Positions 4,074 through 60,291 of a stretch of 64,000 nt of DNA are shown here, in pieces; position 1 is the first letter of the stretch; each line of letters starts with the position of its first letter. Source of the stretch: Escherichia coli (lineage in GTDB: Bacteria; Pseudomonadota; Gammaproteobacteria; Enterobacterales; Enterobacteriaceae); assembly GCF_044647545.1 (NCBI RefSeq), contig NZ_CP172818.1; one strand, 5' to 3'. Position numbers and translations under genes: made by a program. The notes under the pieces are model-generated. The model searched no databases. It was not told where the DNA came from and worked only from the letters and a program-made list of their open reading frames with translations.

Positions 4074-4116
4074 AAAGCAACCTCAATAAGAAAAACTGCC
4101 GCGAAGGATAGCAGGA

Positions 4117-4485
4117 ATAAAAAAAGGGAGCACTGTATTCACAGTGCTCCCGGTTCGTTTCGCAGCATTCCAGCTACTTTTGTTGCTCCCTGCTCATCCT
4201 TGACAACTTTTCCTCTGGCCTTGCGGCCAATCGTTCATCCTGAACTATTGCTTCCTGCTCACACCACCCCGATGTGATACTTCATCCTGAAGTGTCCCTG
4301 GCCTTCCTGACCCACCGAATCATCCTGACCGGTTCTCATTCTCCATCCTGGAGGTGTCCTTTAACGCGTCCTGCGTCATCCTCTTCGCTTCATCCAGAAG
4401 CCTTTCCCTGAAACACCATCCTGGTGTGTCCTTCAGAAGTGTCATCATCCTGATGTTCACTTCGTTGTCTGACTCCCTGTCGACG
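4117..4485 (-). ncRNA. csrB: CsrB sRNA (CsrA-sequestering RNA)
   Basis: About 369 nt whose reverse complement contains many CAGGAUG / AGGA motifs (seen as repeated 'catcctg' on the + strand) and ends in a GC-rich hairpin plus U-tail (rc of 4119-4151); located between yqcC and syd as in K-12. Confidence 0.9.
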
Positions 4486-4694
4486 AAGATAGAATCGTCT
4501 TTTTCGCGAAGTCTTACAAGGCGCTTACAGACAATGCCTTAAGGAAAATTTCATATGAAAGTTAAGAATTGACAAGCAATATATTGATTTTAAATGAAAA
4601 TAACGATTCTTATCTTTTTAAGTATTCGCTTATTTCCTGGCGATCTCCTACAGAGTCTGTAAGAGATCTCTCACAACAAGATGGGGTATTTGGA

Positions 4695-5240
4695 TTACAG
4701 AAGAGGCTTAAGTTGATTAAGGAATTCCGCAAGATTTGAGGCTAAATGCGTCCGTTTGCGTGTTCCCAGCGTCTCTTTGCACACTTCACCGGAGAGATTA
4801 CACACCGAGATGACCTCTAACTCTTCTTCCAGCGTCGCGATAAATAGCGTGGGCGGCAGTTTTAGCCTTTTCTGAGTCACCAGATGACCAATCAGATTTT
4901 CCTGCACCCGACGGAAGTCGTCTTCACTCCAGGTTTGCAGCAATGTCAGTTTGATATCGCCAAACTGCGCGTGCATATCCCCGGCAAACTGAGTCGTATA
5001 AAAGGTATGAATTGTGGGTTGTATCACAATATCAAAAGCACGTTCAACCGCGTTTACATTTTGTTCCCCGGTAAACGGCTGGGGTTGCCAGTATACGGCG
5101 TCTTCGGTGGTTGAAATAATGCACGGTGAAGGAACACCGTACAGTTCCTCACTCAACGGCCAGCTTTTATGCTCTTCATGCCACGCATCGCAGTAGCGTG
5201 CAGTAAAATCTTTCAGGGCTTGTGCGGTCAAATCGTCCAC
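4695..5240 (-). CDS. syd: SecY-interacting protein Syd
   Basis: 181-aa ORF recognised as Syd. Confidence 0.85.
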
Positions 5241-22704: not shown

Positions 22705-22910
22705 ACTTCCTGAGCCGGAACGAAAAGTTTTATCGGAATGCGTGTTCTGGTGAACTTTTGGCTTACGGTTGTGATGTTGTGTTGTTGTGTTTGCAATTGG
22801 TCTGCGATTCAGACCATGGTAGCAAAGCTACCTTTTTTCACTTCCTGTACATTTACCCTGTCTGTCCATAGTGATTAATGTAGCACCGCCTAATTGCGGT
22901 GCTTTTTTTT
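22705..22910 (+). ncRNA. gcvB: GcvB sRNA
   Basis: Starts ACTTCCTGAGCCGGAACG, contains the G/U-rich region gttgtgatgttgtgttgttgtgtttgcaat and ends in hairpin caccgcctaattgcggtg plus T8; divergent from gcvA. Confidence 0.9.
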
Positions 22911-22926: not shown

Positions 22927-23154
22927 TTACTGATCCAGTTCGACCATCTCTTTCACGTCAGTACGGTTGATCTGCTGTTTGTTGCCATTAGCGTCTTTAT
23001 ACGAAATCATACCGGTATCGTTATCAGTCTGTGGTTTGCCGTCAGAGACGATGGTACGTCCGTCATTGGTGTGCATCACATAGTTCGAACCGGAACAGGC
23101 GCTCAGGGCAAAAGTCAGCATACAGGCAGAAATAATTGCGGCAGTCTTTTTCAT
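22927..23154 (-). CDS. ygdI: DUF903 lipoprotein
   Basis: 75-aa ORF with lipoprotein signal peptide and lipobox (LSAC); recognised as YgdI. Confidence 0.8.
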
Positions 23155-23345
23155 CATCTTCTCCTTAAAGCGATTAATAAATCTTAATAGTATTGATTAA
23201 CAGGCTAAAATTAACGCCTAACACTATTCAGCATATGTTACTGACGCGGCTTCGCCAGGATATCCAGATAATTCTGATGGTTAGCACTCTCCTTGTATCA
23301 AAGTGAATTTTGCGTCACGATCGGTGCATCAAGCCGAGGAGTACC

Positions 23346-27232: not shown

Positions 27233-27309
<77 letters not shown>

Positions 27310-27342
27310 ATTAAAATTTGATGAAGTAAAGCAGTACGGTGA

Positions 27343-27419
<77 letters not shown>

Positions 27420-27452
27420 ATCAAAATTTAATGAAGTAAAGTAGTACGGTGA

Positions 27453-27529
<77 letters not shown>

Positions 27530-30500
27530 ATTATCTGAATACCCAAGTTTTCACAATCGTTTTTTTTATTTAAATCTTTCCTGAATCACAAAGTTTTTTA
27601 TCTCCCTTCCTCGAATAATCAATTACACTAAATTATCCCTTTCTGTATACTCAATCCCCGATATCCTTGTAATGATATTTTCATTACATCTAAATTCCCA
27701 ACGTTCAACTAAACACATCCACCCCAAAACATTTCTTCTTCAATCACCTAATAAACCCCTCATCCACAACTCCCCCCATTGATGATCAACACATCCATCA
27801 TCACAAATATTTATACTAATAAATCTCCACTCAAAAAAACAAAAAACAATGATGAATCGACTCATAAAATATCTTCAATTATACAAATGAATCCACTTTT
27901 CACAACTAATCTTTTTTCAAAACTAAAACTCAACATCAAAACAATAACCTTCCCATTTTTCCAATATCGTACCAACACAATACGTTTACCTTTAACCCAC
28001 CATCACTCACCCATACCATTTTCATCCATGATACACCGATATTTTCATCCCGAAATAATCCAATGATAAATTCCCAACCATTTGAATTAATCCCAACCAT
28101 TATTACAATAATACTATTCCTCCACGAAATCAATATTTCTATCCCCTCCCGAATCTCGATATTATTTTCACACCAACACAATAACTTCCCCTATAACAAT
28201 CTTCCCAACCCAAATAATCTCTAATCATATTCTATTTAACAATCCCACATTATTCTTAATAATAAATTAAAATTATTCTCTCTACAACCCAAAACACTCT
28301 AAAACACTACCAAACATTTTTATACACACTCACTTCAAAAACCACCCCAAAAATACTTACTGTATTTATATTTTAAATTATGAATTTCTTTAACCATCAC
28401 CCCTGATGATAAACCGAAACACACATAAATTTTTTCAATTCAAATCAACCCACCCATCACCAACAACCAAACAACATCCACACATATCTAAACTAAATTA
28501 TCCCCTCACTTTACGATTTCAACAATAAATCACAACTTACCAACATATATACTAAAAAATCAAATAATTACCCATTTTTTTCAACACATTCCCAATTTCC
28601 CTCTCACACTTTTGAAATAAAATAACAACATCTCTTCCCACATCCAATCCTGTACCCTCCTACCTAACAAAAAACGAATCCTACTCAAAATCCGATTTTC
28701 CAATAAACCGACTTACCAACACCAATAAAAACAACTTTTCCCTACAAATTTATACTTTAATTAAAACGAATCAAAATATCAATAACTCTCTACTTAATTC
28801 TTACATAAAATTTTAATAATATATCTTATTCATTTTTATTCTCCCTGATTAATATTTTTAATTACACTCACAAACCGTAACCCCATATATAATTTTTCTC
28901 ACCCACCATTCAAGAATACCCTCCCCCTCCGTTCCATAACATCCCCCCATAACCATTTCCTTCATGAATTAACACTTAAAATTCATCAAAAGATAACCAA
29001 TACAAACAATCTACCAAAAAAACAACATCACTCCTACATCAATTCAATATTTTATTCAATACTAATTGAATTAACAATATTCTTTAATGATTTACATCCC
29101 AATCTAACAATAAACAATTATATTCATACTATGGATTTACAAAACTATACGATATCTTCTAACTTATGATTAAAATTACTCATTAAATCATAAGATCTTA
29201 TCAAATTAAATTCATATCATTATACTACTACTTTTTCTTTTTTTATTTTAACCGATGTAACTACTCATTAAAAACAAAATCACTATGATTTCATCTAACA
29301 TAACAAATTATCCTTAACCACATTTTATATTCTTCTTCCACCAACTTCCTCGTTATGAGATTACATAATAACACCATCTCTTTTATCTTAAACAAATCCC
29401 ATTATACTACCCCCCTCATTTTTTATAATCAAAACTTCAAATATTCCCTATTTTTTACATCAAAAACATTAAACATTAAAAACAAATATTATCACACGAT
29501 CAATAATCTATTCTTTTCAATAATACATCACATCTATATTATCCATTCATTTTATCTTTTATATTTTATAAACCATTTACTACCATTCAATATTCACATT
29601 CAAACAGTACCTAAAATCTTTCCAAGTTTTCTTAATCCCTACACACTTCTTATCAAATCCATATCTAAATAAAATGTAATACATCTTTTACACCAAATCT
29701 CCCCAAAATCCCATTTACAATATTTCCTTCAAACAGTATTAAAAACATCCATCACATATCCATTATTATCCATATCCACCAACATGACTTTATACCGATA
29801 ATATTTATATTTTATCAATTTAATATAATTCCCCACTCTTTTTATTCTCCTCAATCAACCCATATCGATTTTAAACTAAAGATACCAATTATCCAGATTT
29901 AATATTCTCTTTACCACAATCCTTAACATCTCTCTCTTCACTCTATTTATCAACGTATATCCCTATACTATCCTCATACTTCACTACAATACTCTTCACC
30001 ACTCATCAGTTAAATTTAAAATACAACAACACAAAGTAATAAATAAAAAATACCACTTCGACACACACCTATTCAACTTTCTTCCACCAAACCCAAACTA
30101 ATAAATTGAATCAACCCATAAATCCCATCTTCACCCCATAACAAACACGAATCCATTCATAAATCATAAACAAACACATACTACAAATAAAAAAAATCCA
30201 ACTCCTACCCCCAATAATGATTAACACCCCAAATAACAATCTTTATACTTTTCTTTTACATACATCGATACACCACCCACCACCAACATACTAATCATCA
30301 TTTCTTTCCATTTTCCCCCAAACCACAATACCATTCTCTACACCCATAAAATCATCCATAATACTCTCCCCCAATCACACCTAAACCGACGTAAACAAAA
30401 ATCACCAGATTTTAACCAAAAAACTCACTCCAACTCATAAAAAATAACCGAACAACCGAATATATCATCCAATGACATGAAAATTAAAAACCCAATAAAA

Positions 30501-31641
30501 GAATGATCAACCAAACCATCATCACAATCATTAATAACACAACCTATAAAAACTAATATCTAACTAAATTAACGTCTTTTTAACACCATAATAACCCACA
30601 ACAATTCCTCTAAACCTTATTTAACTGATCCCAAATATTTATCGACATTTACACACCAATAATCTCTTTTAAATAAAATTCTCCCAGACACCCATAAAAC
30701 AATAAAGAAAAACATATTTATCCTCTTTTTTTTAATAACCAAGAATTTACCAAACAAACATAATAACAAACAAACAAACCAAAACAATAAACAATATTTT
30801 TATTATGAAACCAAAATAATTAATCCATATCATCATCTAAACATCCACCTACATCACACATACAACAACAAGAAATAAACCTCATCTAAAAAAAATCCAC
30901 TTTCTTTTATTTCATATAAATTTATATATAAAATTAATACTACGAATAAAATATATTTTCTCTAAATACATATTTAAAACAACAATACTCAATTTATGAA
31001 TTAAAATTCTTTCTCAAAAATCATAATCACAATATTCTTTTTTTTATACATAAAACAAAAAAAATAATCATCATAACTTAAATTAAATAATCTCACTTAT
31101 AAAACCGATAACTTTATTTTTTAATAATAAAAAGCATAACAATGAATTCAATTATTTAAAACAAATAAAATTCATCAAATTAAACTAAATTATAATAACA
31201 CAATATTTACAATTTATCAAAAAAAATTATTATTTTACCAAAAAATAAAACAAAAAACAAAAATTTAATTTTTCAAATACACAAACAACAACAAAACAAC
31301 AAATACATAATAATATAACGGGTGTTTTTTTGTTTCTTGTCTCCCATAAAAGAGCCAGCCATCTCAGACGACATTCCATATTTTTTTTTAACCACCCACC
31401 CAGAAATATAACCTCTCCATTCACACTTACACAATTATTTCATACTTATATCAATACTCCCAAAAAAAACAACACTCAAATAATAATACTCAAACAATAA
31501 CATACAAAATAACAACAAACAAACGAATTTTTAATTAAAAACTTTATTTTCAACGACATTCAAAATCCACATCATCACAAAACATCTAATATTCATAAAT
31601 TTATCTATCAACGAAATATAAATTCATAATAAATAAAAACA
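27530..31641. other. About 4.1-kb non-native, apparently non-coding block with extreme G-depletion on the + strand (A/C/T-rich, AT-rich); origin and function unknown
   Basis: By eye, most 60-nt lines contain 0-3 G. No ORF longer than about 105 codons in any frame, and those present translate to low-complexity peptides. No obvious long direct or inverted repeats, no integrase, no duplication of the tRNA 3' end. Fills the whole gap between metV and the amiC stop, where K-12 has only tens of bp (from memory). Confidence 0.85.
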
Positions 31642-32895
31642 TTATCCCCTTCTCGCCAGCGTCGCCCCATCGGCAAAATACGCTTTAATTCCCGCAAGAA
31701 TAGACTCCGCAACTTCCTGCTGGAAAGTCGCCGTTTTCAGTTTACGCTCTTCCTCAACGTTACTGATAAACGCCGTTTCGACCAGAATGGAGGGAATATC
31801 TGGTGCCTTTAGTACGGCAAACCCAGCCTGTTCAACTTGATTTTTATGCAGCTTGTTGATTTTACCGAGCTTATTCAGCACCGCTTTACCAAACTTAAGG
31901 CTGTCGGCAATGGTCAGCGACTGCACCATATCGAACATAGTGTGGTCGACATAGCGGTCACCGCTTTTGCTTACGCCACCAATCAAGTCCGAGGCGTTCT
32001 GGGTTTGTGCCAGATATTTTGCCGCAGTACTGGTTGCACCTTTGGTTGAGAGCGCAAACACAGAGGAACCGCTCGGCTGACGACTGGTAAAGGCGTCGGC
32101 ATGGATAGAGACAAACAGGTCAGCACGCTGTTTCTGGGCTTTTGCTACGCGCACTTGCAACGGAATGAAGATGTCTTCATTGCGCGTCATGTACACCTTC
32201 ATATTGCCCTCTTTCTCGATCAGAGAGCGCAGACGGCGAGCTATTTGCAATACCACGTCTTTTTCGCGCGTTTTGTATTTCCCCACCGCACCGGAGTCTT
32301 CGCCACCGTGGCCAGGGTCAAGCATAATGACAATCGGACGATCCCGCCCAGCTTTACCCGGTTGTGGACCACTTTGTGCTGGCGGCACCTGCTTTTCGAG
32401 GTCGCCTTTGTTGTAATCCTCCAGCAGCGCCAGCAGCGGGTCCTGCATGTCCTGAGCATTGGCAGGATAGAGATCCATCACCAGACGCTCTTTAAACCCG
32501 GCGACCGGCGCAAGGGCAAACAGCTGCGGTTTTACGTTTTGCTTTAATTCAAAAACCATGCGTACGGTTTGCGGGTCAAATTGCCCGACGCGCGCCGACT
32601 TGATGAACGGGTCGTCTGCACGAATTTGTGCCGCCATCCCCTTGAGTACCGAGTTCAGGTTTACATCTTCGATATCCACCACCACGCGTTCCGGGTTACT
32701 CAACGCGAACTGCTTATATTTCAGCTGACGATTTGATTCTACCGTCACGCGGGTGTAGCTGGACGCAGGCCAGACGCGCACCGCCACGACCTGGCTGACC
32801 GCAGCCAGACTGACCTGACTTACGCTCAATAGCCACATGGCACCCGCGCCTTGCAGTAAACGACGACGGCTGATTGCAGTGTTGGATCCTGACAT
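31642..32895 (-). CDS. amiC: N-acetylmuramoyl-L-alanine amidase AmiC
   Basis: ORF-track ORF 31642-32985; the 417-aa product starts [23 protein letters not shown] (Tat twin-arginine signal) at 32895. Confidence 0.9.
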
Positions 32896-33126
32896 GCCTC
32901 TCCCGAGCAAAAGAAATCTAAGCTGTGTAACAAGTAAACGACTAATTTGACCGAAAACTTTAGCGAAAGACGCATAATCTGTCATCTATAAAACGGTAAA
33001 CATTCTTTTTATATTCACGGTATTACTGATAAAAAACTCGCTCCCGCATAAAATTTACACTTGCACCCTGCGAAAAAACAGAATAAAAATACAATAATTT
33101 CGAATAATCATGCAAAGAGGTGTGCC

Positions 33127-55038: not shown

Positions 55039-55175
55039 TACTCCGTACGCTCTCCTGCGGGAGGGCGTACTCACTCCTGTTACCCTCACAGTTTAAGATT
55101 TTCCTGCTTTCAAGATATATAACGTCGGTTTATAAAAAGACTATTATCATAGGTGGGCCAAATGAGGATAACCGG

Positions 55176-55394
55176 ATGAAAAAATGGGCAGTAATAATTT
55201 CTGCAGTCGGACTGGCGTTTGCTGTATCCGGGTGTTCCAGTGATTACGTCATGGCGACCAAAGATGGCCGTATGATTTTGACCGATGGAAAACCTGAAAT
55301 TGATGATGATACCGGGCTGGTGAGTTATCACGATCAGCAAGGTAACGCGATGCAAATTAACCGTGATGATGTTTCGCAAATTATTGAACGTTAA
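55176..55394 (+). CDS. ygdR: DUF903 lipoprotein
   Basis: 72-aa ORF with lipoprotein signal and lipobox (VSGC); clear paralogue of YgdI elsewhere in the window. Confidence 0.82.
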
Positions 55395-55501
55395 CAAATA
55401 AGGTCAGCATCCGGCTGGCCTTAAGATTTTTCTCTTTCCCTTTTCCCTTCCCTCTGCCATTTTTATATTCCTTATGTCGTGATTATAAAAAGGAAACGGC
55501 T

Positions 55502-60006: not shown

Positions 60007-60094
60007 AAAAAAAACCTGCGCATCCGCGCAGGTTGGTGCAAGAGACAGGGTACGAAGAGCGTACCGAATAATCTCACCAATCAATACCTCTGGG
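60007..60094 (-). ncRNA. omrA: OmrA sRNA
   Basis: Reverse complement reads CCCAGAGGTATTGATTGGTGAGATTATTCGGTACGCTCTTCGTACCCTGTCTCTTGCACCAACCTGCGCGGATGCGCAGG + U8 (88 nt), recognised as OmrA. Confidence 0.9.
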
Positions 60095-60209: not shown

Positions 60210-60291
60210 AAAAAAAACCTGCGCATCTGCGCAGGCTGGTGTAATTCATGTGCTCAACCCGAAGTTGACTTCACCTATCAATACCTCTGGG
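60210..60291 (-). ncRNA. omrB: OmrB sRNA
   Basis: Reverse complement reads CCCAGAGGTATTGATAGGTGAAGTCAACTTCGGGTTGAGCACATGAATTACACCAGCCTGCGCAGATGCGCAGG + U-tail; shares 5' and 3' ends with OmrA. Confidence 0.9.

Follow-up and report, generated by a model that had tools for sequence, protein, structure and literature searches.

The small genes ygdI and ygdR, located on opposite strands of the window (the whole 64,000-nucleotide stretch of DNA that was analysed), stem from an ancient duplication and belong to the core genes of Escherichia coli, each being transcribed independently. Their products are very probably known, paralogous DUF903 lipoproteins of the outer membrane, non-enzymatic and belonging to the envelope. 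The first-pass annotation had named the two genes, assigned their products to the DUF903 mini-lipoproteins and claimed a homology along the whole length of the proteins, lipobox included; the profile matches, the RefSeq annotation and the alignments described below agree with each of these points. The pair is already known, being annotated genome-wide, covered by curated Pfam and NCBIfam models and represented by solved structures, and the find is therefore correct but ordinary. The earlier reading overlooked the solved structures, the gcvB gene that abuts ygdI and the fact that mutH is not adjacent to ygdR.

The two genes and their products

Two open reading frames were found, ygdI on the minus strand and ygdR on the plus strand, and their translations are identical to the protein strings given in the earlier reading. 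The genes are the same as those encoding YgdI and YgdR in E. coli K-12, with the window DNA being 100% identical to annotated RefSeq E. coli genomes; the K-12 locus tags are presumably b2809 (YgdI) and b2833 (YgdR). The features of the two genes are as follows.

22927-23154, minus strand: ygdI coding sequence, 75 aa plus stop; RefSeq "ygdI: YgdI/YgdR family lipoprotein" at 100% identity; DUF903 E=7e-24, NF033216 E=3.7e-33
23095-23154, minus strand: YgdI lipoprotein signal peptide, 20 aa, lipobox L-S-A-C, Cys20, Ser at +2 (from the translation)
22939-23085, minus strand: YgdI DUF903 domain, residues 24-72, small Sm/SH3-like beta-barrel
23161-23166, minus strand: putative ygdI Shine-Dalgarno sequence AAGGAG, 6 nt from the annotated ATG (from its spacing)
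22882-22903, both strands: GC-rich hairpin common to the convergent ygdI and gcvB (terminator scan; -16.2 kcal/mol on either strand)
55176-55394, plus strand: ygdR coding sequence, 72 aa plus stop; RefSeq "ygdR: lipoprotein YgdR" at 100% identity; DUF903 E=1.7e-24
55176-55235, plus strand: YgdR lipoprotein signal peptide, 20 aa, lipobox V-S-G-C, Cys20, Ser at +2 (from the translation and the family alignment)
55242-55388, plus strand: YgdR DUF903 domain, residues 23-71, Pfam match to model positions 1-49 of 49; structures 2JN0 (NMR) and 3FIF
55164-55168, plus strand: putative ygdR Shine-Dalgarno sequence GAGGA, 7 nt from the ATG (from the sequence)
55399-55423, plus strand: hairpin resembling an intrinsic terminator of ygdR, with a T-rich run after it (terminator scan; fold -15.5 kcal/mol, z=-3.45)

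Both precursors start with MKK, continue through a hydrophobic core and reach a lipobox at residues 17-20 with its cysteine at position 20, and according to the translations both lipoboxes (L-S-A-C in YgdI and V-S-G-C in YgdR) conform to the pattern [LVI][ASTG][GA]C. A tether of 3-4 residues leads from this cysteine to the first beta-strand, so that the architecture of both proteins comprises a signal peptide, a tether and a single beta-barrel of ~50 residues, with other domains absent. The mature domains are acidic, carrying a net charge of -3 in YgdI and -6 in YgdR.

Each gene has a Shine-Dalgarno sequence and a terminator-like hairpin of its own. An extra in-frame ATG is present at 23155-23157 on the minus strand, one codon 5' of the annotated ygdI start, and a product initiated there would begin with MMKK; the annotated start (23154) is favoured over the alternative (23157) because AAGGAG lies 6 nt from the former and 3 nt from the latter. 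Upstream of ygdR, the RcsB-box-like sequence TAAGATTTTCCTG was considered as a regulatory site and dropped, its spacing being one base short of the consensus.

An ancient duplication

YgdI and YgdR share 43 of 72 residues over their full length (60% identity, one gap, E=1e-31 by BLASTP). With the signal peptide and the lipobox cysteine removed, 29 of 50 residues are still identical in an ungapped alignment (58%, E=9e-23), so the pairwise alignment that had been proposed as a check confirms that the similarity extends past the signal peptide and through the mature domain. The pair has a local BLOSUM62 score of 166, whereas 2000 shuffles averaged 24.8 (sd 5.0, maximum 46); this corresponds to z=28. 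At the nucleotide level the two genes are 59% identical, with dN=0.38 and saturated synonymous sites (pS=0.81); the saturation indicates that the duplication is ancient.

These nucleotide values also refute the view that the pair arose by recent duplication or gene conversion, or that it is an artefact of how the window was assembled. Such an origin is highly improbable: a corrupted stretch does exist between ygdI and ygdR, but about 5425 of the 5426 complete E. coli genomes carry each gene once, and each has its own conserved synteny in Enterobacterales. The idea that the likeness reflects generic lipoprotein signal peptides, or chance between short open reading frames, can be discarded. In its favour, the N-termini of both proteins are typical lipoprotein signal peptides and their weak PHROG matches to unrelated families run mainly through the signal peptide (mostly via residues 1-50), but it is refuted by the ungapped mature-only identity, the z-score and a DUF903 match over 49 of 49 positions in both proteins.

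Conservation and gene neighbourhood

The window is chromosomal E. coli DNA. A 701-bp ygdI probe and an 801-bp ygdR probe each match about 5425 of the 5426 complete RefSeq E. coli genomes, most at an identity of at least 99%, and the annotated features at the matched sites are ygdI, csdA, ygdR, ygdQ and tas. In the window, ygdI is flanked by the gcvB sRNA gene and by csdA (cysteine desulfurase), and ygdR by ygdQ (TerC family) and by tas (aldo-keto reductase). The earlier claim that both genes sit next to genes of nucleic-acid or sulfur metabolism therefore holds for ygdI, which adjoins csdA, but not for ygdR, as mutH is two genes upstream of it.

Beyond E. coli, the order csdE-csdA / ygdI / gcvB / gcvA-ygdD is kept in all of the 80 best Enterobacterales loci, ranging from Escherichia to Erwinia, Pantoea and Serratia; these loci were taken from a scan with a 6-sequence alignment and comprise YgdI orthologues only. 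The order mutH-(terC)-ygdR-tas is kept in Musicola and Rouxiella. Outside the Enterobacterales the neighbours change. At the Aeromonas locus shown, a single DUF903 gene adjoins a peptidase S8 gene and a gene for a DUF2541 protein, and on a Halopseudomonas-like contig (L095) two tandem DUF903 genes (4544-4762 and 5001-5219, products 49% identical) adjoin genes for a GGDEF/EAL protein and a TonB-dependent receptor. With these changes, no conserved functional partner gene emerges from the neighbourhoods of ygdI and ygdR across Enterobacterales, Aeromonas and Halopseudomonas, in agreement with the lack of obvious linkage remarked on in the first reading. A partner drawn from the ygdI synteny was likewise rejected, since this synteny is positional only and the arrangement is absent in Aeromonas and Halopseudomonas; the same applies to the synteny of ygdR. 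The Halopseudomonas-like tandem is a third independent case of DUF903 genes occurring in pairs.

The junction between ygdI and gcvB is tight. The GcvB sRNA gene (22705-22910, plus strand; Rfam 199 bits) and ygdI are convergent, the 3' end of GcvB lying 16 nt from the stop codon of ygdI. On the plus strand, the hairpin at 22882-22903 terminates GcvB; on the minus strand, where a U-tract is absent, it is probably the ygdI terminator. As the genes are convergent and 16 nt apart, the GcvB terminator is the sole hairpin available to ygdI transcripts. [quoted passage not shown] This gain in fitness may be a polar effect on the abutting one-carbon regulators gcvB/gcvA.

Protein family and fold

YgdI and YgdR match PF06004 (DUF903) with 83.9 and 85.9 bits, respectively, over model positions 1-49 of 49 (cut-off 27), and NF033216 (lipo_YgdI_YgdR) with 113.2 and 105.9 bits over positions 1-71 of 71 (cut-off 42). 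DUF903 was the only Pfam match at E<=0.01 in the Pfam and NCBIfam scans of the two proteins, and the LSM/Hfq models were unmatched; a sub-threshold match to a peptidyl-prolyl isomerase ran through the signal peptide. One source labels a YgdR-like protein (P0264) as BamE (SmpA/OmlA); this label was set aside, as the scans of YgdI and YgdR return DUF903 and NF033216, not BamE.

The family is covered in the PDB by eight entries with seven distinct sequences. Mature YgdR has the same sequence as the chain of 2JN0 and 3FIF, YgdI orthologues were solved as 2RA2 and 5CAI, and other family members as 3BDU, 2RD1, 2RB6 and 2K57. As in these solved family members, YgdI and YgdR each consist of a single small Sm/SH3-like beta-barrel.

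A profile search of 1.84 billion representatives returned 184 DUF903 clusters at E<=1e-3, nearly all of them single-domain lipoproteins of 65-85 aa, and the named members are gammaproteobacterial. Domain fusions were considered and rejected, because the few long matches are ORF-calling extensions or unrelated repeat proteins, the latter matching the profile only through a short 'KDxxGN..Q' stretch. Among 33 aligned representatives, the lipobox cysteine is kept in 32; in all of these 32 the +2 residue is Ser, Ala, Thr or Gly, never Asp, and the tether is 3-4 residues long. Pro41 and Gly57 are invariant in the same 33-sequence alignment. A resemblance to an aspartic-protease or Ca-binding motif ('DxDTG') was dropped, because family members differ at its T and G positions. 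In a rough NJ tree the sequences fall into three groups, namely an enterobacterial YgdR-type group, a YgdI-type group that includes plasmid copies and a broader non-enteric group, whose sequences end in '...ER' as YgdR does.

One 75-aa entry of a public protein collection (P0134) differs from YgdI solely by the changes T>I, A>V, S>F, R>C, P>L and H>Y. Reads with C-to-T (bisulfite-like) conversion would produce just such changes, suggesting that chemically converted sequence is present in public assemblies.

Published regulation and localisation

Both genes have been recorded repeatedly in studies of stress responses. Expression of ygdI is positively RpoS-dependent and is lower in a Citrobacter rodentium cpxRA mutant (PMC6153362), and the Salmonella orthologue is one of the small proteins under sigma-S control (PMC5437024). 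Treatment with a LolCDE inhibitor raised ygdI 25-53-fold and ygdR 8-12-fold, with co-induction of the lysozyme inhibitor genes mliC and ivy, and the same work gives ygdR as Rcs-induced (PMC5105897). Modest induction of both genes was reported for a cathelicidin-derived peptide (PMC6737244) and for rapid acidification (PMC2270276). Additionally, a 3-hydroxypropionate tolerance study picked ygdI as one of eleven up-regulated genes for overexpression (PMC12591173), and in Serratia a DUF903 cluster was correlated with the presence of a type VI secretion system (T6SS; PMC12165300).

At the protein level, His-tagged YgdI behaved as an outer-membrane lipoprotein and was enriched in vesicles after peroxide treatment (PMC8284480), and EcoGene text quoted in PMC8767339 describes YgdI as a 'verified lipoprotein'. 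The published work cited here assigns no function to YgdI or YgdR, which upholds what the first-pass annotation had said on this point. The two genes encode outer-membrane lipoproteins that are conserved and strongly induced by stress but still have no assigned function.

Proposed role in the envelope

The precursors of YgdI and YgdR would be directed to export by a Sec-type signal peptide ending in the lipobox and, going by established lipoprotein biology, would be processed by Lgt, LspA and Lnt. Under the Lol sorting rule, a residue +2 that is Ser rather than Asp leads to the outer membrane. Since Ser and not Asp occupies this position in both proteins, outer-membrane delivery is to be expected, and LolCDE, LolA and LolB would carry them to the inner leaflet of the outer membrane in the predicted topology. 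Sorting of the pair to this membrane is thus predicted from the +2 rule and one study of tagged YgdI (PMC8284480). Once in place, the short tether would keep the barrel flat on the membrane and out of the reach of peptidoglycan, and the barrel may bind an envelope protein or lipid during stationary-phase or envelope stress. The paralogues appear to be wired to different stress regulons, with RpoS/Cpx acting on ygdI and Rcs on ygdR.

For an acidic barrel of 50 residues without conserved catalytic residues, a binding module is the most plausible role. Our tentative proposal is that YgdI and YgdR could serve during envelope stress as a binding or adaptor module without enzymatic activity, placed on the periplasmic side of the outer membrane; size, fold, tether length and regulation point in this direction. 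The trimethoprim/sulfamethoxazole phenotype of ygdI lacks an obvious fit with envelope stress and counts against the model.

The induction table for the LolCDE inhibitor that contains ygdI and ygdR also includes OsmE, YbaY, MliC and Ivy, which are likewise small exported proteins (PMC5105897). OsmE and YbaY additionally resemble YgdI and YgdR in having no clear function assigned in that work. All four differ from YgdI and YgdR in belonging to other named families, with no sequence relationship detected, and MliC and Ivy differ from the DUF903 proteins in having a defined target, lysozyme.

Plasmid-borne copies and a possible protective role

According to tblastn, genes of the YgdI/YgdR family are carried by 381 PLSDB plasmids, 278 of which are predicted to be mobilizable; most of the DUF903-bearing plasmids come from Enterobacter, Pantoea, Klebsiella and Salmonella. 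One of them is a ColE1-type mini-plasmid of 2,495 bp whose annotated genes are only a YgdI-type lipoprotein gene, rop and one hypothetical open reading frame; 212 plasmid records match at least 80% of its length. Mobilizable plasmids of 4.1 kb carry two tandem DUF903 genes, whose products share 48% identity; their identity to YgdI is about 54%. Examples of plasmid-borne copies are listed below.

L088, NZ_CP085745.1: 593-820
L089, NZ_AP019693.1: 2854-3336
L090: a further plasmid example

The tandem genes of the 4.1-kb plasmids lie just past mbeD, in the slot that exc2/exc1 occupy in ColE1, downstream of mbeD on the opposite strand. ColE1 Exc2 is, like the DUF903 proteins, annotated as a lipoprotein; Exc2 (139 aa) and Exc1 (145 aa) differ from them in being twice the DUF903 length. 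Homology to Exc1/Exc2 was rejected, as a DUF903 match is absent from both ColE1 proteins and the equivalence is positional only.

The plasmid distribution raises the question of whether DUF903 lipoproteins act as the receptor-blocking phage lipoproteins Llp/Cor, exclusion proteins or periplasmic immunity proteins do, by binding an outer-membrane component and masking or modulating it, a role that we regard as unlikely. It is favoured by the number of (mobilizable) plasmids, by the YgdI-type gene being the sole evident cargo of the mini-plasmid in its 212 records, by the tandem copies in the exc2/exc1 slot, by the DUF903-T6SS correlation in Serratia (PMC12165300) and by the co-induction with mliC and ivy (PMC5105897). 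The absence of homology to Exc1/Exc2 speaks against it, as does the reassignment of the ColE1 exclusion role from these proteins to MbeD (PMC2831885). Moreover, immunity or exclusion genes do not usually belong to the universal core genome, as the chromosomal ygdI and ygdR do. Such protection, in the form of resistance to phage, colicin, type VI effectors or incoming DNA, is given the same low credence, and so is the reading of DUF903 as a selectable, mobile envelope-protection module whose barrel masks or stabilises a specific outer-membrane component. If the latter were true, the module would make its bearer resistant to a phage, a colicin, a T6SS effector or a host peptide, and the chromosomal YgdI and YgdR would be its stress-regulated housekeeping versions.

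The PADLOC defence families gave zero matches for YgdI and YgdR. No genuine phage homologues were found either, the six matches in the phage collection being bacterial contigs or fragments filed as phage. The plasmid copies offer a practical genetic handle on DUF903 function, namely the gain or loss of one small gene on a 2.5-kb plasmid.

Pairing of the paralogues and resemblance to Hfq

An obligate heteromer of YgdI and YgdR would account for the recurring pairs, which arose independently as dispersed genes in Enterobacterales and as tandem genes on ColE1-type plasmids (48% identity) and in Halopseudomonas (49%). This explanation is improbable, as the regulons of the two chromosomal genes differ (RpoS/Cpx for ygdI and Rcs for ygdR; PMC6153362, PMC5105897) and a single copy is present on the 2.5-kb plasmids and likewise at the Aeromonas locus shown. 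A linked YgdI-YgdR AF2 model also argues against it, with a pTM of 0.38 and no confident interface, a weak argument because the model is single-sequence and control-free.

Even less probable is a function like that of Hfq, in which the Sm-like barrel would form rings and bind nucleic acid or another polymer in the periplasm. YgdI and YgdR do share the Sm-like beta-barrel fold that characterises Hfq/Sm proteins. However, identity to Hfq in structural alignments is 6-12%, the Pfam LSM/Hfq models are unmatched, and the Sm1/Sm2 motif and the N-terminal helix of Hfq/LSm proteins are absent from DUF903 proteins. The signal peptides additionally indicate that YgdI and YgdR are exported and lipid-anchored, the acidic charges (-3 and -6) are unfavourable to nucleic-acid binding, and the linked AF2 model, with the same weakness as above, offers no confident interface.

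Other features of the window

Between three tRNA-Met genes (27233-27526) and amiC (31642-32985), the window contains a G-depleted stretch of 4.1 kb (27531-31641) with a GC content of 0.14-0.35, a GC skew of about -0.8 and almost no open reading frames; the base counts at 27600-31620 are A 1663, T 1251, C 999 and G 108. Its alignment to the metV-island genes of other E. coli, which are intact and span 5.4 kb, consists only of short gapped blocks, about 470 in number; the genes encode a phosphoglycerate dehydrogenase, KpsF/GutQ, MalY/PatB, a PTS EIIC and a PRD protein. Most G residues of this reference are missing from the stretch and some have been substituted (G>A 113, G>C 76, G>T 58), and other bases were lost too. 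Zero complete RefSeq E. coli genomes match the stretch above 80% identity. Its appearance is that of a copy that is corrupted or of low quality, or that was altered deliberately, and not that of clean deamination.

This degraded stretch affects the distance between the two lipoprotein genes. The spacing of about 32 kb first reported is correct for the window (about 32.0 kb), but the figure is distorted by the 4.1-kb stretch, which shortens the distance by about 1.4 kb; in FDAARGOS_497, a 100% match at both probed flanks, the spacing is about 33.7 kb.

Small RNA genes other than gcvB are also present. [quoted passage not shown] Matches at the Rfam gathering threshold place the OmrA/OmrB sRNA genes at 60007-60094 and 60210-60291 on the minus strand, about 4.6 kb downstream of ygdR, and CsrB at 4116-4475 on the minus strand, near the start of the window.
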